64,000 nt of DNA. It comes from an uncultured Candidatus Saccharibacteria bacterium (GTDB taxonomy: Bacteria > Patescibacteriota > Dojkabacteria > SC72). Below the pieces are notes generated by a model that was given only the letters and a program-made list of their open reading frames with translations, was not told the origin of the DNA and did not search any database. Position numbers and translations under genes: made by a program. The stretch spans positions 32,231-96,230 of the forward strand of contig CAZZPP010000002.1 in assembly GCA_964655705.1 (NCBI GenBank), read 5' to 3'. The stretch's first letter is position 1. Every line of letters starts with the position of its first letter. Positions 19,414 through 40,431 of the stretch are shown here, in pieces.

Positions 19414-20832
19414 ATGAAGAAAACATATTTACTAAGTAGTATACCTAAGCTTCCTGATCAAGATACATATTTTCTAAGTCTTCAAAATGATGCTTACAGT
19501 TACCAAACCATAATTAGTTATGCAAGGGATTTGTCTATCTTTAGTGTATATTTACACTTTAATAATATCCAATTTAAAAATCTTTCTAAACAAGACGTTT
19601 TAAATTACAAAGGATACCTAAGTAGTGGGAATCATTTAAGAGATTTGGATAGAATAAGGGAGAAATGTGTAGAAAGTGGCTTTAAATCAATACAAACAGG
19701 AAGCGAGGCTCTTAGCGCCTCAACAAGGGCATCAAAAAAAACTAGTGGTATGATTGGACCTGTGGAGAATGGGGGAAAGGAAGAAAATAGCTTAAGTCGT
19801 TCTCCACAGGTATATGAGGAGGACTTCTTGTGTAAAGTCTATGGTAAGGTCTATGGTTCACTTGGTATATTGGAGAGGCCTCTTAATTCTAGAGCTAGAA
19901 GTAAAAATGGTTTGGATGCTAGAAGTATTAACCGGATGTTGTCTGCTTTAAGATCGTATCTTAAATTTAGAATTGAATTTGATTTGGATATTCCAATTCC
20001 TCCGGATAGTATAAAGATGGTAAGAACTGATAAAAAGGTTAAGAAAGTTGCATCTTTAGAGGAACTAGTTAGTCTAATTGAATCACCAATGGAGTTCGAA
20101 AAAGATGAGCGTGTAGCACTTCGTAATAGATGTATGCTAGAGATGTTGTTTGCTACTGGTATGAGAATATCGGAGTTGATTGGATTAAATATGGAGCAGT
20201 TAAATGTAGAGGGTAAGATATATGTAACTGGTAAGGGCAAAAAAGAAAGGGCAGTATATATGACTCAGAGATCTTTAGGATGGTTAAACAAATATTTAAA
20301 GTTGAGATTAGAGTACGCCTTTTCGGATAGAGAAAAAGAGGAGCAGCCAGGAAGTATTGAAAAGGTGTTCTCAGATTTAGGAGTTGAATCTCAAGCCATG
20401 AAACCTCGTGAAACATCTTCTGATGAGACAATCTCCAAGGGTTTGAATTTAGAAGTTTTTGATACAGAGAACAGGAAATATATTAAATTAATAGAAGAGT
20501 ATAGGAAGAGTAAGTTCCTAGAGAAATTCAACTCCCCTGCCCTATTCATACCTTTCGTTGGTATTAGGAGTAAAAAACCGAATTCTAGGATATCTACTAA
20601 CTATTTCCAAGAAAAAATTGCTGATTACAGAAAAAGATTAGGTATTCAAATTCCTACATCAGCGCATAGTTTAAGGCATGGTTTTGCAACATATATGGCA
20701 GAGGATGGTGCTAGTGCAGTAGCATTACAGATTCTTTTAGGTCATGAGAGTTTAAATACAACTACTAAGTATGTTCATGCTAGTGAGAAATTTGCAGAAG
20801 ATACGGTTAGAAAGAATCATCCCTTAAAATAG
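19414..20832 (+). CDS. Tyrosine recombinase/integrase (XerC/XerD-like) with large internal insertions
   Basis: N-terminal SAM-like core-binding domain. Catalytic R..HxxR..Y set (AHSLRHGFAT, LLGHESLNTTTKYVH). At 472 aa it is about 170 aa longer than canonical Xer. Confidence 0.65.
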   Translation: MKKTYLLSSIPKLPDQDTYFLSLQNDAYSYQTIISYARDLSIFSVYLHFNNIQFKNLSKQDVLNYKGYLSSGNHLRDLDRIREKCVESGFKSIQTGSEALSASTRASKKTSGMIGPVENGGKEENSLSRSPQVYEEDFLCKVYGKVYGSLGILERPLNSRARSKNGLDARSINRMLSALRSYLKFRIEFDLDIPIPPDSIKMVRTDKKVKKVASLEELVSLIESPMEFEKDERVALRNRCMLEMLFATGMRISELIGLNMEQLNVEGKIYVTGKGKKERAVYMTQRSLGWLNKYLKLRLEYAFSDREKEEQPGSIEKVFSDLGVESQAMKPRETSSDETISKGLNLEVFDTENRKYIKLIEEYRKSKFLEKFNSPALFIPFVGIRSKKPNSRISTNYFQEKIADYRKRLGIQIPTSAHSLRHGFATYMAEDGASAVALQILLGHESLNTTTKYVHASEKFAEDTVRKNHPLK

Positions 20833-28035: not shown

Positions 28036-28222
28036 AATGTAATATTTTTTGTCTTTTCGTCTTTAATATTTTTCAATATTTTTAGACTCATCAGTAGGAT
28101 ATATATTTTTAATAAATATTTAATCCTAGAAGACTCTAGCGTGTGATGATTGTTTTTTGGGGTTTTTTAATGATCGAAGTCAGAAAAAAGGATTATCCCA
28201 GAAAACGGCTAGAGTTTATTTT
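28036..28222. repeat. Noncoding repeat X (copy 1 of 2)
   Basis: About 187 bp, about 90% identical to 28490-28676. Contains the ctagaagactctag palindrome and a tttttggggtttttt tract. Confidence 0.8.
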
Positions 28223-28265
28223 GTTTTAGGAAGTAATTATTCCTAATTTCTTTTATTTTCATTTC

Positions 28266-28477
28266 TTCCTCCTTTTAAAAGGAACATAATTTTTATTTTC
28301 AGCAATACCACTTGGTATGCATTCTATCTCCAATAAATATATTAGAAACATAATGCATACTATTTGGATGCTTAAAAGAAGAAAAATACTTTAGTATTTC
28401 ATCACACACTATTTTGTTTTAAATATATAAGACATAAGTCTATATAATATACTTAAAAACTTTTAAAAGAACTTGCT
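28266..28477. repeat. Noncoding repeat Y (copy 1 of 2), with RBS and a collapsed 17-codon ORF remnant on the minus strand
   Basis: About 210 bp, about 90% identical to 29141-29349. Contains the GTATGCAT-N29-ATGCATAC inverted repeat. The minus strand reads aaaaggaggaagaaATGAAAATAAAAGAAATT...TAG. Confidence 0.8.
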
Positions 28478-28489
28478 AGAATAAAAATT

Positions 28490-28676
28490 CAATGTAATAT
28501 TTTTGTCTTTTCGTCCTTAATATTTTTCAATATCTTTAGACTCATCAGTAGGATATATATTTATTAGATATTAATCCTAGAAGACTCTAGCGTGTGATGA
28601 TTGGTTTTTGGGGTTTTTTAACAACAATTAAGTGTTAAAAAGATAATCCCAGCAACCGGCTAGAGTCGATTTGAAA
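28490..28676. repeat. Noncoding repeat X' (copy 2), immediately 3' of the Cys-rich lipoprotein gene
   Basis: Direct repeat of 28036-28222. Ends exactly at the stop codon of the minus-strand gene. Confidence 0.8.
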
Positions 28677-29138
28677 TTACTTGTAAACAGGCTTGTAGCC
28701 GGGGTCCGTGGTGAAAGGCTGTGCAGCAATGCATTCAAGAAATCGAGCTTCTTGATATTGGTACACATATGCACCTGCTGTATACTCCATAGGAGTCCCT
28801 TTTACAACATAGACATCGCCGGGATTTAATCCTTTTGGATCATAGACATAGTTGATTGTACAAAAAGTACAACTACCATCTTCCTTTACAGGAATCCCTA
28901 CGATTTCAGCCTGACACCAGCCAGTATTAACTTCTCCTGGAGCTGGTTCAACTGTGGTTACAGTTTGTTCACATGTAGGACACTCTTGGCATGGAGCAAT
29001 TTGGCATCCATCTGAAGCCATCAATCCTCCAATGTCGTAGCAAGCTGCGACATAGTCCTCTGAGAAATCCTTCTTCGCCAAGCAACATGCGCTTAAGCAA
29101 AGGGCCAATACGACAAACAAAACGACAATCTTATTCAT
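28677..29138 (-). CDS. Small cysteine-rich secreted lipoprotein
   Basis: Start at MNKIVVLFVVLALCLSAC (lipobox LSAC), preceded by AAAGGAGG. The mature part has about 12 Cys (CYDIGG, DGCQIAPCQECPTCEQ, WCQAEI, SCTFCT, ECIA). Confidence 0.6.
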   Translation of the reverse strand: MNKIVVLFVVLALCLSACCLAKKDFSEDYVAACYDIGGLMASDGCQIAPCQECPTCEQTVTTVEPAPGEVNTGWCQAEIVGIPVKEDGSCTFCTINYVYDPKGLNPGDVYVVKGTPMEYTAGAYVYQYQEARFLECIAAQPFTTDPGYKPVYK

Positions 29139-29140
29139 TT

Positions 29141-29349
29141 TTCCTCCTTTAAGGAAATAAAAATCATTTATTTTCAGCAATACCATTTGGTATGCATTCT
29201 ATCTCCAATAAATATATTAGAAATATAATGCATACCACTTGGATGCTAAAGGAAGAAATAGACTCTACTTATTCATCACACGCTATTTTGTTTTAAATAT
29301 ATAAGACATAAGTCTATATAATATACTTAAAACTTTTTAAAGAACTTAG
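29141..29349. repeat. Noncoding repeat Y' (copy 2), immediately 5' of the lipoprotein gene (promoter/RBS region)
   Basis: Direct repeat of 28266-28477. Includes the RBS and the GTATGCAT ... ATGCATAC inverted repeat at 29190-29235. Confidence 0.8.
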
Positions 29350-29636
29350 AGTTCATAAGAACTCATAAAAGATATTTAAAGAGAATATCTCTCTATGAAT
29401 ACTTATGTGTATTTGAATGAAAATTTATTATTAAAGAGCAGACTTTATTAACAATTAACTACTTATATTATACTATAGGTTGGAATAAATATCAATACTT
29501 GAAATAGGTTAGGTCAGGTTTATTTCTTAATGAGCAATTAATTATTAAGATACATATATTATACTATAAGTTTAGCAATTTTTCAATATTTCCTACTCTT
29601 CATAAATATTTAATACTCTTTTGTTAGCATTGAGAT

Positions 29637-30218
29637 ATGGTATCTAAATCATGCTATGTATTCATTGATTCATCTAATCTCTTCTATGGAGGGAAGAGAA
29701 GATTGGGATGGAGAGTAGACTATCTTAAGTTATTTAAATATCTAAAAAGAAGATATAGGATGAGAGAGATCTTCTATTATTCAGGAGTAGAAGCTCATGG
29801 TTTTGAACCTCTACTTTTATCGTTAGAGAGATATCCAGTAGAGAGTTTATACAAATATCTCCAAGAGGAGTTTAAGAAAGCAGATAGAGAAGAAAAAGAA
29901 TCCCTCCAGAAAGATATCTCTAGGGCGAAGTTTTTAAGAAAGATAGAAGAGTTTGGCTATACTCTTAGATTAAAACCAATTAAACATTTAAGAGATTTCA
30001 AAGGTAGGATAAAGAGTAAGTCTAATTGTGATGTTGATTTAACTCTTGATGCTATTAGATTGGAGAAAGAGTATGACACTTTTATACTGCTTTCAGATGA
30101 TGGTGATTTTGAAATACTTCTTGGATATCTAAGAGAAAAAGGGAAGACTATTGTAGTAATAGCAAACAGTGACAATACAGCAAGAATTATAAGGATAGAT
30201 ACCAAGGGAACTTTATAG
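29637..30218 (+). CDS. NYN-domain (LabA-like) putative ribonuclease
   Basis: YVFIDSSNLFYGGK..VDYLKLFKYL..IFYYSG and CDVDLTLDAIRLEKEYDTFILLSDDGDFEILLGYLREKGKTIVVIA match NYN/LabA catalytic acidic residues. Confidence 0.7.
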   Translation: MVSKSCYVFIDSSNLFYGGKRRLGWRVDYLKLFKYLKRRYRMREIFYYSGVEAHGFEPLLLSLERYPVESLYKYLQEEFKKADREEKESLQKDISRAKFLRKIEEFGYTLRLKPIKHLRDFKGRIKSKSNCDVDLTLDAIRLEKEYDTFILLSDDGDFEILLGYLREKGKTIVVIANSDNTARIIRIDTKGTL

Positions 30219-30255
30219 ATTTCTCTAGAATTAAAGAAGTAATTAAAGAATAAAA

Positions 30256-30290
30256 ATGGGAGGATCGCCCATATAGGAAGGTCCTCCCGA
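30256..30290 (-). terminator. Hairpin terminator (likely for the abiEii operon; possibly bidirectional)
   Basis: gggagga-N17-tcctccc stem. On the minus strand it is followed by ATTTTTATTCTTT. Confidence 0.4.
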
Positions 30291-30474
30291 GGTCTAGTGT
30301 TTAAGTATAATCTAAAGATTACTAATATTCAAGAAGATATTTATGAACAATGTAGGAGTGTAGAATAAGAAAAAGTGGCATTTACGGTCGGTCGAAACCT
30401 TAGATTAGTCCAGTTATGGTAATTCGCATATTGTATTTCTTTCTAAACGGTATCTCAGGACAACATTTTACATA

Positions 30475-31086
30475 TTACTTAACGGAAATATCTATAAGAA
30501 AGTTTTCTATCTCTTTATCTGAAGGAGGGTTATCAATTCTCCATATTACCTCTTCTGAATAATCAATATCTTCAAAATAGCACAACTGTTGTAAAAACAT
30601 TCTTTCTGAAAATATAGTACCATATATATCCTTGGCCTCTTTAATAATATCTTTTATGGAGTACTCCTTTAGCAATATATACATATCTACATAGTCTTTC
30701 CATTTTCCTCTTCTACCTAGTGTATATGCCTTCATTGCTCCTATTGTAAGTGGAGATGCAATAGAAATCTTCTCTTTTTTCTCTATGCCTTTTACTTTGA
30801 AAGGATATCTTAGAAATGTAATCTTAACAGAATTTATGAATATTGTATATTCATCTAATTTATCAATTACACTCTCTATATCCCTATATCCTAAATCAAT
30901 TAACTCTTTCAAAATATCTTCATTTTTAAATCCTTTGTAAGAAAACAAATCAAAATCTAGAGATTCTCTATGACCAAGTTGAAGAGCAAGTGCAGTTCCT
31001 CCAGCTAAGTAAAACCCTTTTTGCGAGAAATGTTCTACGATATTAAATACTTCAATCTGTTTTGGATTTAGTATGTATTTATGCAT
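30475..31086 (-). CDS. AbiEii/AbiGii-family nucleotidyltransferase (DUF1814) toxin-like protein
   Basis: FYLAGGTALALQLGHRESLDFDLF matches the AbiEii GGTAL..G.R.S.DLD nucleotidyltransferase motif. Confidence 0.75.
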   Translation of the reverse strand: MHKYILNPKQIEVFNIVEHFSQKGFYLAGGTALALQLGHRESLDFDLFSYKGFKNEDILKELIDLGYRDIESVIDKLDEYTIFINSVKITFLRYPFKVKGIEKKEKISIASPLTIGAMKAYTLGRRGKWKDYVDMYILLKEYSIKDIIKEAKDIYGTIFSERMFLQQLCYFEDIDYSEEVIWRIDNPPSDKEIENFLIDISVK

Positions 31087-31348
31087 TTCTCTTTAAATAT
31101 AGATCGATATAATTAATAACTAAAGGAGACAAGTTTGACCTTTTTTTGTTTCTCAGTTTAAAATATTCTTTTTGAAAATCTTCTTTTTCTTTTAACACCT
31201 CCCTTAGCTGGTTCATGTCACCATAGTTAAGAATTCTTTCAAGAATGGCTAGTTCGCTTAGTTTAGCAATCTTTTCTTTAGGGATATCCCAAAATATCTT
31301 GCTATTTCTTATAGATTCTCTCTTTAACAAAATTGAAAATGTATTCAT
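31079..31348 (-). CDS. Small partner protein of the AbiEii-like gene (candidate antitoxin/cognate regulator)
   Basis: 89-aa ORF overlapping the toxin-like gene by 8 bp in an operon-like arrangement. FWDIPKEKIAKLSELAILERILNYGDMNQL motif. Confidence 0.45.
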   Translation of the reverse strand: MNTFSILLKRESIRNSKIFWDIPKEKIAKLSELAILERILNYGDMNQLREVLKEKEDFQKEYFKLRNKKRSNLSPLVINYIDLYLKRNA

Positions 31349-31394
31349 ACCATTATTATATCAAAAAAAAGAGGAGGCTTCCCTCCTCTATTAG

Positions 31395-32147
31395 TTATCT
31401 ATATTCCTTTAAGATATTTGTACTAAACACCCTACTCTCTTTCATAGATATCATAAAGATATCTTTAAGCATTCTACTAATATCTTTAATATTTGCAGAT
31501 GTAGAATCAGATCTATTCTTGTTTAAATAGAAAGGTACTACAGATACGTCATATCCTACCTTACCTATCTCATTTAATATCTCTGAGTCAATAGCAAATC
31601 TATTTACCTTTAAATTAGGTAATATTCTTTTTATCAAATCTCTTTTAAAGAGTTTTAGTCCACAACCTACATCTGTAATATTTTTAGGAAGTCTTAATAG
31701 TAATTTGTTTACAGCAATTAAACCGTAAGAGAAGATTTTTCTTCCAAATGTCATTTCAATATTAGAATCTTTATGTAGTTTAGAAGGTATAACAGCCATA
31801 ACATAGTCTTTTTTAATCTCGCGAATAGCAGAAGCTATAGATCTTATTTGGATATCTGTATCTGCATCAATGAATCCTATTACATCTCCTGAAGCTTTTC
31901 TCATTCCGTATCTTACAGCGTAACCCTTACCTTTGTTCTCTTTGTATCCATATACAAATGCCTTTTTAAGTCTGTTTTCTTTAATATACTGCTCTAATAT
32001 ATCCTTAGTATTATCAACATACCCATCAATTACGAAGATGAGTTCAAAGTCAGGATTTACTCTAGAAAGATATCCGTAGAGTCTTTCTAATTGATCCAAT
32101 ACTTCTCTTTGTTTTTTGTATGTTGGTAAAACCAAAGATATTTTCAT
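31395..32147 (-). CDS. Family 2 glycosyltransferase (polyprenol-phosphate sugar transferase-like)
   Basis: MKISLVLPTYKKQREV..ELIFVIDGYVDNT..GFIDADTD (DxD) GT-A signature. About 250 aa with no TM, like DPM1/GtrB-type enzymes. Confidence 0.7.
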   Translation of the reverse strand: MKISLVLPTYKKQREVLDQLERLYGYLSRVNPDFELIFVIDGYVDNTKDILEQYIKENRLKKAFVYGYKENKGKGYAVRYGMRKASGDVIGFIDADTDIQIRSIASAIREIKKDYVMAVIPSKLHKDSNIEMTFGRKIFSYGLIAVNKLLLRLPKNITDVGCGLKLFKRDLIKRILPNLKVNRFAIDSEILNEIGKVGYDVSVVPFYLNKNRSDSTSANIKDISRMLKDIFMISMKESRVFSTNILKEYR

Positions 32148-32184
32148 TTAAATATGTATAAAGATATGAAATAAATATGTGCAT

Positions 32185-32210
32185 TTAAAAAAAATGCCCC
32201 AAAGGGGCAA
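32185..32210 (-). terminator. Rho-independent terminator downstream of the 78-aa gene
   Basis: tgcccc-aaa-ggggca hairpin. On the minus strand it is followed by ATTTTTTTTAAA. Confidence 0.6.
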
Positions 32211-32220
32211 TCTCTTACTA

Positions 32221-32457
32221 TTAGGCAAGAGATTGCTCTTCCTTAAGGCGTTTAACTGTAGACAATATAATCATTCCTGTAATAAATGTTACTCCAGCTG
32301 CAATGTAGAATATTGAGGTATCTTCAAAACCTGTTGGAATAGGTTCATGTCCGTAAGGGTTATAAGGCCCGTATGGATTACCATCTGCAAATACAGTTGA
32401 AACATTTATTAAGAAAGTAGTTGCTACAGCTAAAACTATTGCGAATAACTTCCTCAT
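32221..32457 (-). CDS. Tiny secreted protein with sortase-type C-terminal sorting signal (PIPTG + hydrophobic + KRLK)
   Basis: Signal peptide MRKLFAIVLAVATTFLINVSTVFA. Mature DGNPYGPYNPYGHEP. Then IPTG motif, a 20-aa hydrophobic stretch and a positively charged tail. Confidence 0.5.
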   Translation of the reverse strand: MRKLFAIVLAVATTFLINVSTVFADGNPYGPYNPYGHEPIPTGFEDTSIFYIAAGVTFITGMIILSTVKRLKEEQSLA

Positions 32458-32521
32458 ATTTAAAGGGCTAGTTAAATTAAATGCAGTATCATTATACTAC
32501 AACTAGCCCTAGAAGTCTATA

Positions 32522-33343
32522 CTATGGGTTGTATCCTCTCAAATACAATTCTAATATTTTGTTACTGTTAACCATCTCTTGTGCGTACTCGACCCCTAAG
32601 TATCTGTAATGCCAACTCTCAAATTTGTAGCCTGTAATATCTTCATATCCTTTGGGAAATGAAATTACAAATCCATATTTATATGCATTATTAATTAACC
32701 ATTTACTTGCCTTGGTATTTGCAAACTCATCCCCTAGCCTATCTCCTATTTCATTACTACTAAAATCTATTGCTGTACCAAGTTGATGTTGACTATGTCC
32801 TGGTCTTGCAGAGAATGTATCTACTAGTGCTACATTATTATTGTTTTTACTTAACCAGTAGTTATATGTACTTACCTGCGTTTGATATGATCTGTATGCT
32901 GATACAATGCTTAAATCCACTCCTGCAGCCTTAGAATCAGTGACTAGTCTTCTTAAATCAGGGATTAAAATATTTCGTAGGTAGTATCCGTCCCCTCTTC
33001 TAATACCAGAATTACTTGCTTTAACTAAATCCGATGGAGCGTATGTACTTGGTAAGTTATACTGTTTGTTTACTAATACAAGTAAATCATTCCCACTTCT
33101 TTTTGTAGTAAGTATTTCAGTTGGGTATTCCCACCAGTTACTATTTTCTGTAGTGGTATTCATCTTTTCTGTTACTTCTTTAACTTTCTCAATCTTAAAT
33201 GTATCAGTTGAGGGATTCTCAATCCACTCTACCTCTTGTATATTGTTGTTCTCAGTATCTTTCTTTAGGATTAGATCTACTGTTTTAGCGGGAAGGAAGA
33301 AGGTTAAAATTAAAAGAATTGAGTAGATTAAAGCCTTTTTCAT
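32522..33343 (-). CDS. D-Ala-D-Ala carboxypeptidase / peptidase M15B (VanY-like)
   Basis: LLVLVNKQYNLP..YAPSDL, SAYRSYQTQ, RPGHSQHQLGTAIDF, SWHYRYLG: all VanY/M15B zinc-site motifs. N-terminal signal/TM. Confidence 0.75.
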   Translation of the reverse strand: MKKALIYSILLILTFFLPAKTVDLILKKDTENNNIQEVEWIENPSTDTFKIEKVKEVTEKMNTTTENSNWWEYPTEILTTKRSGNDLLVLVNKQYNLPSTYAPSDLVKASNSGIRRGDGYYLRNILIPDLRRLVTDSKAAGVDLSIVSAYRSYQTQVSTYNYWLSKNNNNVALVDTFSARPGHSQHQLGTAIDFSSNEIGDRLGDEFANTKASKWLINNAYKYGFVISFPKGYEDITGYKFESWHYRYLGVEYAQEMVNSNKILELYLRGYNP

Positions 33344-33381
33344 AGTGCATATTTTACAATATTTGGTATAAGGAAGAAAGG

Positions 33382-34074
33382 TTACTCTTTAACCCTATTT
33401 GCATATCTAAATATCCTTTCAGGGGTACTGTAGTATTTACAGGTATACAGGATTAGGTCTGCACTGTAGTCGGTAATGTATGTACCAATATCTCCATCAT
33501 ATATTTCATATATATATTCTCTTTGATTCCAGTATATACTGACTCTTGTTCCTGATTTAGTATCTGGGAGTTTGTAAAAGGAGATTAAATTTCTTTTCGA
33601 AGTACTCCAACTTGAGTATCCGAATCTGTGTGCCGCTAGTATTATTGGCAAGCTATCATTTTCTGGTGTCCCAAAATCATCTACTATCCAAGTACCTTTA
33701 GTGAGAGCTTTCCTGTAATCTTTAGTAGGCGTAATTGGAGAGTTTATACCTACACTTGGGATTAATACAAAATAGCCTTCTGGTAAATTGGGATCAAATG
33801 GAGGGACCTTATTTTCTTCAATGGGTTCCTTCTCCTCGATTTCTTCCTTGTCATCAACAATATCTTTGGAGATCTTTTCTTCATCTATTTCTACTGCGTC
33901 TGGGTTAAGTCTATACCAGATATATGGGGCTGTTGGTATAGCTATTAATACTAGAGTAATCAAGATGAAGAGAAAACCTATTGTTTGATATATTTTTAAC
34001 AATTTCTCATATTGTTTACCTTTTTTCATACATTTATACATTATCATATATATATGATAATGAAAAAGGTCCAT
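33382..34074 (-). CDS. Sortase-family transpeptidase
   Basis: N-terminal TM. LIPSVGINSPI, ILAAHRFGYS (catalytic His), SIYWNQREYIYEIY, LILYTCKYY (TLxTC-type catalytic Cys). True start is probably an internal Met (MKKGKQ, near 34029). Confidence 0.7.
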   Translation of the reverse strand: MDLFHYHIYMIMYKCMKKGKQYEKLLKIYQTIGFLFILITLVLIAIPTAPYIWYRLNPDAVEIDEEKISKDIVDDKEEIEEKEPIEENKVPPFDPNLPEGYFVLIPSVGINSPITPTKDYRKALTKGTWIVDDFGTPENDSLPIILAAHRFGYSSWSTSKRNLISFYKLPDTKSGTRVSIYWNQREYIYEIYDGDIGTYITDYSADLILYTCKYYSTPERIFRYANRVKE

Positions 34075-34394: not shown

Positions 34395-37202
34395 TTACAT
34401 AAGTGCCATTGTAGCTACTTTGTCACCTTCTCCGATATTCATTACCTTTACTCCACTTGTTTGTCTTCCTAATGTAGGTATCGCGTCTATTGAAGATCTT
34501 ATAACTTTCGATTTTTCTGATATTACAACTATCTCGGCCTCAGGGTGATCAAGTATTCTTGCTACTGCAACTTTTCCTGTCTTAGGTGTTACTCTAAAAG
34601 TAAATATACCTGTACCACCTCTTTTCTGTTTAGTATATTCAGATAGTTTTGTCATTTTACCGTATCCGTTTTCAGAGAGAGTAAATATTCTATTTTCATT
34701 TGCTCTAATTACTCCCATACCTACTATGAAGTCAGTTTCTGTTTTAAATTTCATAGCCGTTACTCCTCTGGTACTTCTACCTAAGGGTCTTACATCTTTT
34801 TCAGTAAACCTAATAGATTTCCCTTCGGCAGTTACCAATATTATCTCATCGTCTCCAGTAGTTGGTTTTACCCACGTAAGCTCATCATTGGTTTCTAATT
34901 TAATTGCTGTTAATCCGTTTGCTCTAATCTTCTCAAACTGAGAAAGATCTGTCTTTTTAACTATTCCACCTTTGGTTACCATTAAGAAGTATTTAAAATC
35001 CCTTTTCTCAACTACTCCATTTAAATCTTGGTTCTCTTGTATTTCCTCTGAGCCCATTACACCACCTTTAGGATCTCTAGTTAATATGGAAGTAATTATT
35101 TCATTCTGATCAAGTTGTACAAGATTTATTAAAGGAATACCCTTAGCGGTTCTCCCATACTCTGGGATTTCAAATATTCTAGTACTAAATACACGGCCTT
35201 TATTAGTAAATAGAAGTAATTCATCGTGGGTATTACAAAGTAGTACATGCTCTATGAAATCACCCTCTTTGGTATCACCACCGGATATACCCTTTCCTCC
35301 TCTGTGCTGTGTTTGATAGGTTGAAGGAGGTACTCTTTTTACATATCCTGAGTGAGTTATGGTTATTAATGTTTCTTCCTGTGCAATCATATCTTCCTCT
35401 GATATTTCATTTATCTTCCCTTTTACTACCTTTGTTCTTCTTTTATCTCCGTAAGCCTCTTTTATTGCCTTCAAATCATTATCAACTATCTCAAGTATCC
35501 TATCCTGACTATCTAAAATATTGTTGTATTCAATGATATTTTGCTTTGTTTCTTTGTAATCATTTTCTAACTTCATCCTCTCTAGTGCTGCTAGTCTTCG
35601 AAGTTGCATATCTAAAATTGCTTGAGCTTGAACTTCTGTGAATTTGAATTTGTCCATTAAGTTTGTTTTGGCAGTTTCTTGAGTTTTAGAACCCCTGATA
35701 GTTGCGATTACTTCATCAAGGAAATCTAAGGCCTTTAGAAGTCCCTCTAAGATATGTGCATGATATCTTGCCTCTGCTAGATCATACTCATATCTCCTAA
35801 TTGTTACTGTAATTCTAAAGGAGAGGAATAGTTCTAACATTCTCTTTATGGAAAGGGTAATTGGTTCTTGCTCTACTAATGCAATCATATTTGCATTAAA
35901 GGTTTTTTGCATCTCAGTATATTTATACAGTTTGTTCAGAACTGTTTTAGGTTGTGCATCCTTTTTTAGAACGATTACCACCCTTATACCATCCTTGTTT
36001 GATTCATCTCTAATATCTGCTATTCCTGTAATCTTTTTGTCACGCACAAGGTCAGCAACCTTCTCTATCATATATGCCTTGTTTACTTGATATGGGATCT
36101 CTGTTACTACAATTTGGTATCTTCCATTTTTACCCTCAACTATTGAGGCTTGAGCTCTTTGTAAAATCTTTCCTCTTCCTGTTGCATATGCATTTAATAT
36201 CTCATCCCTATCATATATTGTTCCTCCTGTTGGGAAATCTGGGCCAGGAATAATTTCAATTAACTCTTCTGGGGTTATATCTGATTTGAAGTCAGGATAT
36301 ATTACCTCACCACTTTTCTCAATCCTGTCTACTATCTCTTGAATCTGAATAGCATATTCTAGGGATTTTGTATCTACATAGTTTTCTAAGTATTGCTCAG
36401 GTCTTGCGTTTAAGGTCTGAGGTATTATCTCGTCTTTCTCTTTACTCTTTCTTAACTCATTGTATATTGCAACTCCTTCCCATCTGTTCTTTCTCTTAAT
36501 CATTTCAGACAGTGCGTCTACTAGTTCCCCAATATTATGTGGAGGTATTTGTGTTGCCATACCTACTGCAATACCTTGGCTACCATTTGCCAAAAGATTA
36601 GGGAAAAGTGCAGGTAATACAGTTGGCTCTAACCTAGTACCATCATAGTTAGGAACAAAAGTAACTGTTCCTTTGTTTAAATCTTTAAGAAGTTCAGGAG
36701 CAATCTTACCTAGTCTGGCTTCGGTGTATCTCATTGCTGCTGCAGGGTCTCCATCTATGGATCCGAAGTTACCCTGTCCTTGTACAAGGATATATCTTGT
36801 AGAGAACTCTTGAGCGAGTTTCACTAATGTCGGGTATACTACACTCTCTCCATGGGGGTGGTAGTTACCAGAGGTGTCACCTGCAATCTTTGCACATTTC
36901 CTAAAATGAGAGGTAGGACTTAGCGAAAGGTCGTTCATTGCAACCAGTACTCTTCTTTGCGAAGGCTTAAGTCCATCTTTTACCTCTGGTAGTGCACGAG
37001 CAACAATTACAGACATGGAGTAATCAATATAGTTGGATTTCATCTCATCTACTATTGATCTTTGAGTTACCTCTCCTGGTTTAAAAGTTAAATCAAAATC
37101 AAGATCAGAATCTTCTACAGAAGGAGCAGATTCTACTGGTTCTTGATTTTCAATTTCAATTGTCTCTTCTGCTTTCTTAATTATATCTTCTTTGTCTGGC
37201 AT
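34395..37202 (-). CDS. gyrA: DNA gyrase subunit A
   Basis: Active-site region ARALPEVKDGLKPSQRRVL. Tyr-containing AAMRYTEARL. C-terminal beta-pinwheel repeats. N-terminal acidic extension of about 50 aa. Confidence 0.9.
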   Translation of the reverse strand: MPDKEDIIKKAEETIEIENQEPVESAPSVEDSDLDFDLTFKPGEVTQRSIVDEMKSNYIDYSMSVIVARALPEVKDGLKPSQRRVLVAMNDLSLSPTSHFRKCAKIAGDTSGNYHPHGESVVYPTLVKLAQEFSTRYILVQGQGNFGSIDGDPAAAMRYTEARLGKIAPELLKDLNKGTVTFVPNYDGTRLEPTVLPALFPNLLANGSQGIAVGMATQIPPHNIGELVDALSEMIKRKNRWEGVAIYNELRKSKEKDEIIPQTLNARPEQYLENYVDTKSLEYAIQIQEIVDRIEKSGEVIYPDFKSDITPEELIEIIPGPDFPTGGTIYDRDEILNAYATGRGKILQRAQASIVEGKNGRYQIVVTEIPYQVNKAYMIEKVADLVRDKKITGIADIRDESNKDGIRVVIVLKKDAQPKTVLNKLYKYTEMQKTFNANMIALVEQEPITLSIKRMLELFLSFRITVTIRRYEYDLAEARYHAHILEGLLKALDFLDEVIATIRGSKTQETAKTNLMDKFKFTEVQAQAILDMQLRRLAALERMKLENDYKETKQNIIEYNNILDSQDRILEIVDNDLKAIKEAYGDKRRTKVVKGKINEISEEDMIAQEETLITITHSGYVKRVPPSTYQTQHRGGKGISGGDTKEGDFIEHVLLCNTHDELLLFTNKGRVFSTRIFEIPEYGRTAKGIPLINLVQLDQNEIITSILTRDPKGGVMGSEEIQENQDLNGVVEKRDFKYFLMVTKGGIVKKTDLSQFEKIRANGLTAIKLETNDELTWVKPTTGDDEIILVTAEGKSIRFTEKDVRPLGRSTRGVTAMKFKTETDFIVGMGVIRANENRIFTLSENGYGKMTKLSEYTKQKRGGTGIFTFRVTPKTGKVAVARILDHPEAEIVVISEKSKVIRSSIDAIPTLGRQTSGVKVMNIGEGDKVATMALM

Positions 37203-37206
37203 TACT

Positions 37207-40200
37207 TTAAACGTCTAAATTAGCTTTCTTAGCATATCTTTGAATGAATCTTCTTCTAGGAGGTACTTCACTTCCCATTAACATCTCAAAAGTTTTTTCA
37301 GCTTCCTCTGCATCTTCAATATGTACTCTCTTTAGGGCCCTGTTTTCTGGATTCATAGTGGTTTCCCATAACTGATCCGGGTTCATTTCTCCTAATCCCT
37401 TAAATCTGTTTGCTACAGGTGTTTTACCAGCGTTTTTAGCTTTCTTAACAAAAGCATCCTTCTCGTTATCATTTAGGAAGTAGTATTTCTTCTTACCAAT
37501 TTCTACTTTGTGAAGAGGTGGTTGTGCAACGTAAATATATCCTTGCTCTATTAAAGGCTTAAAGAATCTAAAAAGGAGTGTAAGTACCAATGTAGTTATA
37601 TGTAATCCATCTACATCTGCGTCACTCATTATTATTACTTTATGATACCTTAGCTTGCTTATATCAAGTGTTGTACCAATTCCCACCCCTAATGCTGTGG
37701 TAATATCTTTAAACTCATTGTTTCCCAGGACCCTATCTACCCTATATTTGTTTGTATTGATTATCTTACCTCTTAGAGGAAGTACAGCTTGAGTATGCCT
37801 ATCTCTACCTTGTTTAGCACTATTATGGACAAAGACCCCACTTGCAAGGGCAAAGTTATGTGTTTTTGGTACTTCCAAATCAAATACATCTATTTTTTCT
37901 TTCAAATATTCTATTGATACAATTTTATGATTAAAGTGTTTAACAGCATCTTCTAATCTCGCCATATCATTATCAAAAAATCTACTACATAGTGTGGGGA
38001 CTTTGAGTAGAGTTTTGTTGTTTAAATCTCTTCTTACCTTGTTATATGCTTCAACAGAAACCTCACCGAAAGTATCGTAGACAGATCTAAGGACTTTTAG
38101 ACTCCTGTCAAGATATGTCCTGTTGTACGCTTTTTTTCTTTTAAGTATAAATTCTTCAGTCCACTGCTCTTTAGTTTTTTCAGAGCGCCATTTAAGAAGT
38201 TCCACATTACTCCACTGCTTCTTGGCAGAAATGGATAATTTCTCTAAAGCCTCTGGGTTGTTTTTTAGATATTGAGAGACTTTTTTAGATTGTTTAAAAC
38301 GATTCTCTTTTTTACTCCAATACTCTTTTTGGAGAAGATTTAGTCTTCGATTGTTTTCTTTTTGATATTCTTCATTGGTGAAATAGAAGGCAAGGAATTT
38401 ATTCTTCATATATTCCTTGTACTCCTCGTTCTCCCACTGTTTCTTAGCATTCTTACTAAGAAGAGACCTTGTTGATGGTTTAAGCATTGAGTTTCTCATC
38501 TTCTCCTTAAACTCAGGGCTGCTTCTTAATACTCTAAGTTTCTCATATACTTGCTTAGTATGGAGGGTCTTTGCTATATGTTTCTGATGTATTACGAGAT
38601 GGTCTTCCTTGCTTAATCTAACAATATTGTTTGGATTATTATTTAACTTATTAAAATCTTTATGATGTTTGTAGGTACCCTCGAAGTTTTTGTATACATT
38701 ATGTCCCAAGTTATATTCATCTGACAATACATGTGTAAACACCCATTTTGAACTGGAGGGATTTAATACCATCTCATAGCCTTCTATTGTGATTCTTCCT
38801 TTTTTCTCTGACAATTTCTTGTACAAAGGCATAAGGGAGTCATGCTTGGAGAGATCTTTAGCTTTCTTGTATGACCCATCTCTAAGCATGAATTTGTGGT
38901 CAGGTGTACATACAATTTCCTCTCTGTTATCTAAAGTAACTTTAATAACTGGAGTATTTCTTTTTGTTCTTCTTACGTTTTGGATTTCTGAAATTGATAC
39001 CTTTCTACTATCTGTAATTGTATAGCAGTAGTTCTGTTTACCTTTCTTCTGCTCTTCAATTAATTCTAAGAAAGTCAAAGACCTCCCATCTGCAAGAGAC
39101 ACTCTTGTATCTCCAGAAAAACATCCACCGGCACTATCGCCTTCCACAATATACAGTTCAGAATCTTTAGGATCATTGCTAATACAATCTGCTAATTTAC
39201 CTGGTAAAGTAGTACTCTCTAATGCACTCTTTCTAATGACTGCATCTCTTGCTGCTTTAGCAGCAGCTTTTGCTTTGTAAGAAAGTATTGCTTTGTCTAA
39301 AATGGATTTTGCCTCCTTAGGATGTTCATCTAAGTATACTAGTAGTTCATCTCTAATTACTTTAGCTACAGCATTTTTAACCTCTGGATTATTTAACTTT
39401 ATTTTTGTTTGACCCTCAAATTGAGGATTTGCTACTTTAACAGATACTACTGCAGTTAAACCCTCTCTAACATCATCTCCATTTAAAGAGGTTGTTAAAC
39501 CTTTAAGGAGATCGGATTTCTGAGCATACGAATTAATTGCACTTGTAAGAGCAGTTCTAAAACCTGAAAGATGGGTACCACCCTCTGGATTTATGATGTT
39601 GTTAGTATAGCAGCGGACATTTTCATCCATTCCATTAGTGTATTGAATCGCAGATTCTACAATAATTCCATCTTGGTCTTTTTTAACATAGAAGGGGATA
39701 TCATTTACGAGTTTCTCGTCTATGTTCATAAACAGGACATATGACTTAATACCATCCTCAAAATACACATCAAAGATCTTAGGATCCTTACCCTCCTCTA
39801 CTCTTTCATCAAGAAGGGATATTCGTAGTCCTGCTGTTAGATATGCATGTTGTCTACATTTTTTAACTAACTCTTTGAAATCAAAATCTGTTTGCGTAAA
39901 TATCTGACTATCTGGCATAAATCTATGTTCTGTACCAGTTTCATTCTCAACACTCCCAACCTTTTTAACAGGTGCTTTCGGGATACCTCTTTGGTACTCT
40001 TGTTGATACACTCCACCATCTCTTCGTACAGTGGTAATCATCCATTCTGAGAGAGCATTAGTACATTTCATACCGACACCATGAAGACCTCCAGAAACTT
40101 TGTATGCACCCTCTTCAAACTTCCCACCTGCATGTAGATTAGTCATTACAGTTTCTAGTGTAGAAACCTTTGTCTGAGAGTGAATTTCTACTGGTATTCC

Positions 40201-40431
40201 CCTACCATTATCTTTAACAGAAAGAGAGCCATCTTTATGTAGTGTTACCCATATCCTGTCACAGTATCCTGCTATGGCTTCATCAACAGAGTTGTCTAAA
40301 ATCTCAGTAAATATATGGTGTAAACCATTCCTATCAGTAGATCCAATGTACATTGCAGGTCTTTTTCTTACTGCCTCAAGTCCTTGTAAGACCTGAATAT
40401 TGGATGCTTTGTAATCACTCTTCTTTGGCAT
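37207..40431 (-). CDS. gyrB: DNA gyrase subunit B, intein-containing precursor
   Basis: GHKL ATPase N-terminus (ILDNSVDEA, GLHGVG). The conserved EGDSAGG|SAKQGRD is split by a 434-aa insertion. TOPRIM/C-terminal domain is intact. Confidence 0.9.
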   Translation of the reverse strand: MPKKSDYKASNIQVLQGLEAVRKRPAMYIGSTDRNGLHHIFTEILDNSVDEAIAGYCDRIWVTLHKDGSLSVKDNGRGIPVEIHSQTKVSTLETVMTNLHAGGKFEEGAYKVSGGLHGVGMKCTNALSEWMITTVRRDGGVYQQEYQRGIPKAPVKKVGSVENETGTEHRFMPDSQIFTQTDFDFKELVKKCRQHAYLTAGLRISLLDERVEEGKDPKIFDVYFEDGIKSYVLFMNIDEKLVNDIPFYVKKDQDGIIVESAIQYTNGMDENVRCYTNNIINPEGGTHLSGFRTALTSAINSYAQKSDLLKGLTTSLNGDDVREGLTAVVSVKVANPQFEGQTKIKLNNPEVKNAVAKVIRDELLVYLDEHPKEAKSILDKAILSYKAKAAAKAARDAVIRKSALESTTLPGKLADCISNDPKDSELYIVEGDSAGGCFSGDTRVSLADGRSLTFLELIEEQKKGKQNYCYTITDSRKVSISEIQNVRRTKRNTPVIKVTLDNREEIVCTPDHKFMLRDGSYKKAKDLSKHDSLMPLYKKLSEKKGRITIEGYEMVLNPSSSKWVFTHVLSDEYNLGHNVYKNFEGTYKHHKDFNKLNNNPNNIVRLSKEDHLVIHQKHIAKTLHTKQVYEKLRVLRSSPEFKEKMRNSMLKPSTRSLLSKNAKKQWENEEYKEYMKNKFLAFYFTNEEYQKENNRRLNLLQKEYWSKKENRFKQSKKVSQYLKNNPEALEKLSISAKKQWSNVELLKWRSEKTKEQWTEEFILKRKKAYNRTYLDRSLKVLRSVYDTFGEVSVEAYNKVRRDLNNKTLLKVPTLCSRFFDNDMARLEDAVKHFNHKIVSIEYLKEKIDVFDLEVPKTHNFALASGVFVHNSAKQGRDRHTQAVLPLRGKIINTNKYRVDRVLGNNEFKDITTALGVGIGTTLDISKLRYHKVIIMSDADVDGLHITTLVLTLLFRFFKPLIEQGYIYVAQPPLHKVEIGKKKYYFLNDNEKDAFVKKAKNAGKTPVANRFKGLGEMNPDQLWETTMNPENRALKRVHIEDAEEAEKTFEMLMGSEVPPRRRFIQRYAKKANLDV
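37822..39123 (-). mobile_element. GyrB intein (434 aa) with HNH-type homing endonuclease domain
   Basis: Starts with Cys after GDSAGG (CFSGDTRVSLADG, Hint block A). Ends with VFVHN followed by +1 Ser. Internal HHKDFNKLNNNPNNIVRLSKEDHLVIHQ is an HNH motif. Long Lys/Glu-rich linker. Confidence 0.8.

Follow-up and report, generated by a model that had tools for sequence, protein, structure and literature searches.

A compact DUF1814 nucleotidyltransferase and a conserved small DUF6922-like partner as a putative toxin-antitoxin module in a Dojkabacteria-type genome

The subject of this report is a locus of three genes in a 64,000-nucleotide (nt) stretch of DNA from an uncultured Candidatus Saccharibacteria bacterium (placed in the Dojkabacteria by GTDB), a stretch to which we refer throughout as the window. 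On the plus strand of the locus lies a gene for a NYN-domain nuclease, and on the minus strand lie two overlapping genes, the first encoding a small protein of 89 amino acids (aa) and the second a nucleotidyltransferase (NTase) of 203 aa, together with a predicted promoter and two hairpins (Table 1). An earlier note on this DNA had placed three open reading frames (ORFs) here, with an 8-bp overlap of the minus-strand pair, and our ORF call bore this out, the overlap being ATGCATAA, in which the last nucleotides of the 89-aa ORF form the start of the 203-aa ORF. Because conserved homologues exist for all three ORFs, we regard them as genes and not as chance ORFs. A comparison found the same GC content in the region as in its flanks and hence no compositional anomaly. 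From the names carried by the closest homologues, the source is a patescibacterium of the Candidatus Dojkabacteria type. Coordinates without a prefix refer to the window, whereas those prefixed with L and a number refer to loci of relatives; P and a number denotes a relative's protein of the small family.

Table 1. Features of the locus in window coordinates
Feature	Position	Strand	Details
NYN-domain nuclease gene	29637-30218	+	193 aa, intact; PF01936 77 bits
Short-form DUF1814 (AbiEii/MenT-type) nucleotidyltransferase gene, putative toxin	30475-31086	-	203 aa; PF08843 43.4 bits
Small partner gene, putative antitoxin, DUF6922-like family	31079-31348	-	89 aa, isoelectric point (pI) 9.8, all-helical model
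Cassette (promoter, small gene, NTase gene), 0.9 kb	30470-31362	-	Empty site in L105
Extended -10 promoter TGATATAAT, predicted	31355-31363	-	6 nt upstream of the small-gene ATG; read from sequence
Terminator hairpin and T-run of the upstream GT2 gene	31370-31389	-	Terminator scan, RNA folding
Stable hairpin with U-tract (about 30246-30256)	30258-30288	-	Terminator scan, folding

The claim that the 203-aa protein is an NTase of the DUF1814/AbiEii family was well supported. Its Pfam match to PF08843 (AbiEii), with 43.4 bits against a gathering cut-off of 22.5 and an E-value of 4.9e-11, passes the threshold, its homologues already carry PF08843 as a precomputed annotation, and the catalytic motif is present on alignment. 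Dy et al. defined motifs I-IV of DUF1814/AbiEii as hG[G/S]...R...DhD, a Lys in a hydrophobic context plus an Arg, and +DxxD (PMC3985639), and the NTase of the window shows all of these defining features: motif I is A28-G29-G30, motif II is R40...D44-F45-D46, motif III is M118-K119-A-Y...R126 and motif IV is K130-D131-Y-V-D134. In an alignment of relatives from many phyla, residues G30, R40, S42, D44, D46, K119, R126, K130 and D134 are each conserved in 78 of 78 sequences. Ser42 stands two residues ahead of the first catalytic Asp, which is the phospho-acceptor position of S78 in MenT3, T39 in MenT1 and T65 in AbiEii.

The AlphaFold2 model of the NTase is a confident one (pLDDT 95.2, pTM 0.90), and its best Foldseek match in the Protein Data Bank (PDB) is JHP933 (4OK0/4O8S; E 1.3e-6, TM 0.63), followed by MenT1 (8AN4/8AN5; E 6e-6, TM about 0.55), MenT4 (6Y56; E 1.4e-4) and MenT3/TglT (6J7Q; E 4.9e-4). 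When all PDB chains were searched by sequence, no meaningful match emerged, and for that reason we consider the protein to represent a distinct, compact subfamily. This subfamily is large: it has more than 3,290 homologues, nearly all of 200-210 aa, and relatives are found in at least 589 species-level genomes of Patescibacteria, Bacteroidota, Nitrospirota, Desulfobacterota, Gammaproteobacteria and others. The description of such enzymes as GTP-specific toxins of type IV systems, which the earlier note had used, is out of date, because MenT1, MenT3, MenT4 and AbiEii add mainly pyrimidines to the 3′ ends of tRNAs and thereby arrest translation (PMC7450476, PMC10435456, PMC11375011, preprint 10.64898/2026.01.19.700257) and because AbiE was reclassified as a type VII system in the same 2026 preprint.

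For the 89-aa protein it had been suggested that it could be a minimal variant of AbiEi, and this suggestion fails. No AbiEi model matches the protein in Pfam (at E <= 1), NCBIfam or PADLOC, its profile has no meaningful match among all PDB chains and does not find MenA1 (8AN5) at E <= 10, and a Foldseek search with its AlphaFold2 model (pLDDT 93, pTM 0.84, about six helices) returned no match in the PDB (best E 1.3, unrelated chains) or in BFVD (best E 3.1). The PDB set was expected to include both AbiEi (6Y8Q) and MenA1 (8AN5), and from the lack of any match to it in sequence or fold we conclude that the small protein is neither a shortened AbiEi nor a MenA1. Its sole Pfam match is to PF21956 (DUF6922), whose model spans only about 52 N-terminal residues, and at 21.1 bits (E 2e-4) this match lies below the cut-off of 27. 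Relatives of the protein do reach that cut-off (P0028 with 31.2 bits, P0192 with 29.5, P0044 with 28.1 and P0302 with 27.2), and therefore the small protein of the window is best described as a divergent member or a sister group of PF21956. It has 47 close homologues of 84-98 aa, and a search of an all-protein library at E <= 1e-3 gave 371 cluster representatives at 50% identity. The family signature is hFWD...LS..A..ER.LNYG...R.N..P...NY..LY, in which W20, E37, N41, G43 and N72 (numbered along the full protein) are near-invariant.

These small proteins are a conserved DUF6922-like family of their own and the standard partner of the short NTase subfamily. When 80 genome loci were retrieved by the NTase profile alone, as a reverse test, and then scanned with the hidden Markov model (HMM) of the small protein, a match was present directly upstream and on the same strand in all 80 (E 1e-9 to 1e-34). 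Metagenomic loci found via the small protein all have a PF08843 gene of about 205 aa directly downstream, which in L007 and L008 is a truncated remnant. Distant examples of the pair occur in Bacteroidales, in Gracilibacteria and at a locus between uvrB and uvrA. Among 78 pairs with assignable start codons, the genes overlap in 74, most commonly by 8 nt (35 pairs), 11 nt (16) or 23 nt (8), and the median length is 89.5 aa for the small proteins (range 84-102) and 205 aa for the NTases (range 202-212). Given these median sizes and the modal overlap of 8 nt, the architecture in the window is the norm for the family and not an oddity. Of the two outcomes that the earlier note had named as refuting its reading, neither was observed: the 203-aa protein passes the DUF1814 threshold with its catalytic motif in place, and the 89-aa ORF is conserved beside DUF1814 homologues. 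The two proteins have also diverged together, as the pairwise-identity matrices of the two correlate with r = 0.78, a value as high as which was reached in 0 of 999 Mantel permutations. A metagenome-assembled genome of Draconibacterium orientale (L068, 1-4618) has three to four of these pairs in tandem. As a separate observation, a second, more divergent NTase is encoded nearby in L038, L063 and L082.

Comparison with relatives delimits the pair and its promoter as a cassette. Locus L105, whose flanks are 71-76% identical to those of the window, aligns to 29514-30447 and again to 31365-33982, and in place of the promoter and both genes it has about 10 unrelated nt. Locus L102, whose flanks are closer still (87-93% identical), has an unrelated 226-aa ORF at the site of the cassette. 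The replacing ORF (L102:2642-3322) encodes an acidic protein on the opposite strand and has no Pfam match. Inspection of the cassette borders by eye for target-site duplications gave only ambiguous AT-rich microhomology. The left border of the cassette indel is the non-coding sequence at 30274-30447, which extends from the hairpin to the NTase stop codon and is about 90% identical to L105:880-1052, although the flanking genes are only 71-76% identical; its right half is also about 90% identical to L107:3470-3555, although the NYN protein of L107 is only 29% identical to that of the window.

Read from sequence, the cassette carries what would be a promoter of its own. A TG[A/G]TATAAT element followed by 5-6 nt and an ATG is conserved in L001, L003, L007, L011, L013 and L015 despite their different upstream genes, and with the -10 box so near to the start codon the mRNA should be leaderless or near-leaderless. 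On the upstream side, the predicted terminator of the GT2 gene would insulate the cassette from read-through. On the downstream side, the hairpin at 30258-30288 is situated about 187 nt past the stop codon of the NTase operon. Its folding energy is -17.3 kcal/mol when read on the minus strand, compared with -27.7 kcal/mol (z = -4.4) in the plus-strand context, and a second z-score of -2.8 was also obtained. Since its U-tract is found on the minus strand only, the hairpin is a canonical terminator for the NTase operon only; it probably ends the transcript of the pair and is likely a weaker stop for the NYN gene. Thus, of the shared hairpin terminator that had been proposed for this site, the real and stable hairpin between convergent genes stands, and the canonical terminator for the NYN gene does not. 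The possibility of a structured RNA in the 256-nt spacer was rejected, as there was no Rfam match at E <= 10 beyond noise and no covariation.

A major question arising from so regular a pairing is which of the two genes, if either, encodes an antitoxin. Part of the answer may come from fusions, since in several relatives the DUF6922-like domain follows an N-terminal DNA-binding domain, namely HTH_3 in P0286, HTH_17 in P0229, RHH_1 in P0182, a NikA-like RHH in P0192 and a MarR/wHTH domain in P0302. Such a combination is the classic antitoxin layout of a regulator joined to a neutralising domain. Further indications come from gene decay. In L007 (4263-4568) and in L008 the NTase stops after residue 88 and the GG of motif I has become GE, with the upstream small gene intact and its product 73% identical to that of the window. 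In P0258 (250 aa) and P0298 (208 aa) the DUF6922-like domain is joined to the C-terminal half of the NTase, which has motifs III and IV only, and both proteins are probably the products of in-frame deletions that removed the catalytic core with motifs I and II. That the NTase has decayed where the small gene survives is what is expected if the NTase is the toxin, and it therefore speaks against a reversal of roles as in HEPN-MNT, in which the small protein would be toxic and the NTase would be an antitoxin that modifies it. There is precedent for that arrangement, as HepT has the NTase MntA for its antitoxin and is neutralised through adenylylation (PMC7641770), and the small protein of the window, being basic with invariant polar residues, would not be out of place in the role of HepT. 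However, L007, P0258 and P0298 retain the small protein without the catalytic half of the NTase, which a cell should not survive if the small protein were toxic; its domain carries DNA-binding fusions, an antitoxin hallmark; its gene comes first in the operon, like those of the antitoxins of AbiE and MenAT; and DUF1814 NTases have been toxic in all tested cases. We regard reversed roles as very improbable.

Our preferred reading, which we consider rather probable, is that the segment at 30470-31362 is a toxin-antitoxin (TA) type module made up of an NTase toxin and a small antitoxin. The generic traits of TA modules are all present in the family, that is, two-gene linkage, co-evolution, patchy presence, and decay of the toxin with the antitoxin kept. 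A number of observations weigh against this reading. There was no match to the module in 50,697 phage records or in IMG/VR, and among 72,556 plasmids it is nearly absent, with one weak match. Dojkabacteria-type genomes keep the pair in one core neighbourhood that includes gyrA, a sortase gene and VanY, a constancy that means less mobility than TA or defence modules typically show. The AbiEii models of PADLOC give weak and partial matches to the NTase, and the several near-invariant polar residues of the small protein exceed the needs of simple steric blocking. In addition, public sources label the proteins of the small family “hypothetical”, and no paper that mentions DUF6922 was found in the literature searched; a physical interaction between the two proteins is suggested by the genetic evidence.

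Could the pair instead be a two-subunit housekeeping enzyme? The NTase would then carry out a beneficial transfer, such as modification or repair of RNA or tRNA ends or the nucleotidylation of a small molecule, with the small protein serving as a subunit that gives it specificity or regulates it. This is the chief rival of a TA-type module, and it accommodates the absence of the pair from phages, its near absence from plasmids and the conserved polar residues of its small protein. It would also suit the chromosomal location beside core genes (in the window these are gyrBA, sortase and VanY, in L019 uvrB/uvrA and in L017 RNase J/HisRS) and the long retention of one neighbourhood by Dojkabacteria-type loci that have diverged to 43-82% identity in the small protein. 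Yet a housekeeping enzyme would not be expected to be precisely present, absent or replaced among relatives, to lose its NTase while the small gene is kept, to form tandem paralogous arrays, or to have its small domain fused to HTH and RHH domains of the autoregulator type, and all characterised DUF1814 NTases are toxins. We therefore rate the housekeeping enzyme as unlikely, if less so than reversed roles.

If the pair is indeed a TA-type module, its mode of action might be as follows. The extended -10 promoter would drive a near-leaderless transcript from which the basic, helical, DUF6922-like protein would be translated first, and then the DUF1814 NTase, coupled in translation through the 8-nt overlap. 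Free NTase would add nucleotides to the 3′-CCA ends of tRNAs and so halt translation, on the analogy of MenT1, MenT3, MenT4 and AbiEii, and the small protein, docking on the NTase in or close to the active site, would neutralise it by occlusion, by induced auto-phosphorylation of Ser42, or by both. The latter idea draws on current work proposing that MenA1, MenA3 and AbiEi, which are mutually unrelated in structure, all neutralise their toxins at the active-site Ser/Thr loop via binding and induced auto-phosphorylation (PMC11375011, preprint 10.64898/2026.01.19.700257). What we infer comprises the toxicity, the choice of tRNA as target, the way in which the NTase is neutralised and any part played in phage defence, and for the specific tRNA target and the details of phosphorylation, which are carried over from these analogues, we would put the chances at somewhat below even.

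How does the pair compare with known systems? The closest in build is MenA1-MenT1 of M. tuberculosis (Rv0078B/Rv0078A, 8AN4/8AN5), in which a short DUF1814 NTase of about 190-200 aa likewise follows a small helical antitoxin without a DNA-binding domain, and in which the phospho-acceptor T39 of MenT1 has the same spacing to the first catalytic Asp as S42 of the window's NTase. However, MenA1 is a V of two helices, 68 aa in length and with only 21 homologues reported, whereas the partner in the window is a compact protein of 89 aa with about six helices, and the NTases themselves are only 16-18% identical. With AbiEi-AbiEii of Lactococcus and Streptococcus agalactiae and the COG5340-COG2253 systems (MenAT3/4, SanaTA, RlegTA) the pair shares a bicistronic, overlapping arrangement with the antitoxin gene first, and motifs I-IV and membership of PF08843 in its NTase. 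In contrast, the antitoxins of those systems are autoregulating proteins of 136-290 aa with a wHTH and a C-terminal domain, of which the window has none, and AbiEii exceeds the window's NTase by about 90 aa and has 15 residues between motifs I and II where the latter has 13. The best structural match, JHP933 of H. pylori (jhp0933, 4O8S/4OK0), likewise follows a gene that overlaps it, jhp0932, in the manner of a TA pair (PMC7450476), but it resides in an integrative and conjugative element or plasticity zone and is 19% identical to the NTase of the window.

The toxin family and the logic of TA systems are thus already known, and the partner is a catalogued domain of unknown function; its obligate pairing is not described in the literature searched, in which our queries on AbiEii in the candidate phyla radiation (CPR) or in Bacteroides returned nothing on this combination of small protein and NTase. 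The antitoxin classes known for DUF1814 NTases are COG5340 (AbiEi/MenA3/MenA4), COG4861 (MenA2) and MenA1 (PMC3985639, PMC7450476), and if our reading is true there would be another class beyond these. More speculatively, the DUF6922-like proteins may be a fourth and structurally new class of antitoxins for DUF1814 NTases, one that triggers auto-phosphorylation of Ser42 by means of W20, E37, N41, G43 and N72, that in Bacteroidota and Patescibacteria predominates as the partner of the compact 205-aa NTases, and that in the reduced genomes of Dojkabacteria is a long-kept chromosomal fixture and not a mobile defence gene; this extended proposal is a tentative one that we would not expect to hold in full. 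The auto-phosphorylation model could be tested independently on one more partner family, very small, unrelated to the others and always paired with a compact, Ser-retaining NTase, and with 89 and 203 aa the pair would offer structural studies a minimal system. CPR bacteria and the Bacteroidales of gut and rumen commonly carry the module, and, because it is annotated as an “AbiEii toxin” beside a “hypothetical protein”, finders of defence systems that are based on AbiE would miss it as a complete system. For the window itself the outcome is a modest one: an ordinary copy of the module and an unrelated NYN gene.

That the 193-aa protein has a NYN domain was confirmed, the match to PF01936 reaching 77 bits against a cut-off of 24.2. 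Acidic residues are present in its sequence at D11, D132/D134 and D153/D154/D156, its nearest solved relative is 2QIP, and its NCBIfam match is far below threshold (15.5 bits against a cut-off of 178). The earlier note had gone further and united the NYN RNase, the AbiEii NTase and a minimal AbiEi-derived antitoxin in a three-gene defence islet within a recombinase-marked region. In keeping with such an islet, the NYN gene lies next to the NTase gene in convergent orientation and has a hairpin in common with it, the NYN model of PADLOC matches in part (29.9 bits), strains differ in the 3.4-kb stretch from one GT2 gene to the other, and a Patescibacteria locus, L089, likewise has a NYN-like ORF by the pair. 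However, when 101 loci were searched with phmmer and a five-sequence NYN HMM, L089 was, closest relatives aside, the only one of the 80 genome loci with a NYN-like ORF within 3 kb of the pair; the gene was missing beside the pair in the other 79 and in most Dojkabacteria-type loci, which have the pair without it. Conversely, L105 and L102 have the NYN gene without the pair. In L001, the nearest relative with the gene, the syntenic NYN orthologue (L001:5452-6003, 59% identical) is interrupted by an in-frame stop at about codon 85 and carries the change D11G in the first catalytic motif, and judged from its sequence it is likely a pseudogene beside an intact pair. This pattern of co-occurrence, absence and decay leads to the conclusion that the NYN gene is an independent neighbour and not a part of the module. 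Together with the lack of AbiEi similarity of the small protein by HMM, sequence and fold, and with an integrase that is 8.8 kb off behind syntenic genes, the co-occurrence data largely refute the three-gene islet, to which we assign hardly any probability.

The recombinase in question, a tyrosine recombinase of 472 aa at 19414-20832 on the plus strand (Phage_integrase, 114 bits), marks no accessory region at this locus, since the genes that separate it from the pair, and those beyond, are core or envelope genes in synteny with relatives, and there is no integrase-bounded island. At 472 aa the protein is unusually long for a Xer protein. The core neighbourhood of the pair, which recurs in relatives, includes gyrB and gyrA at 34395-40431, with VanY and two GT2 genes also nearby; the sortase-like gene is so named by its synteny with L001, the ORF of the window at 33382-34074 having no Pfam match. 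The part that does vary is the 3.4-kb interval flanked by the two GT2 genes, where segmental duplications and cassette polymorphisms are found.

Some further features of this variable part and its surroundings deserve mention. Two segmental duplications surround a 169-aa ORF at 28677-29186: 28046-28221 is 83-98% identical to 28500-28672, 28263-28467 is 85-89% identical to 29138-29341, and the duplications, which span 28046-29341, have the appearance of a remnant of a duplicated 5′ gene region with its promoter. A 41-nt direct repeat occupies 29460-29500 and 29551-29591, and each copy contains a near-consensus sigma-70-like promoter sequence on the minus strand (11 of 12 positions) that is aimed at the 169-aa ORF. 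On the pair's opposite side, gyrB (37207-40431, minus strand) carries an intein (PF14890, 84 bits) at residues 444-870, ahead of the Toprim domain.

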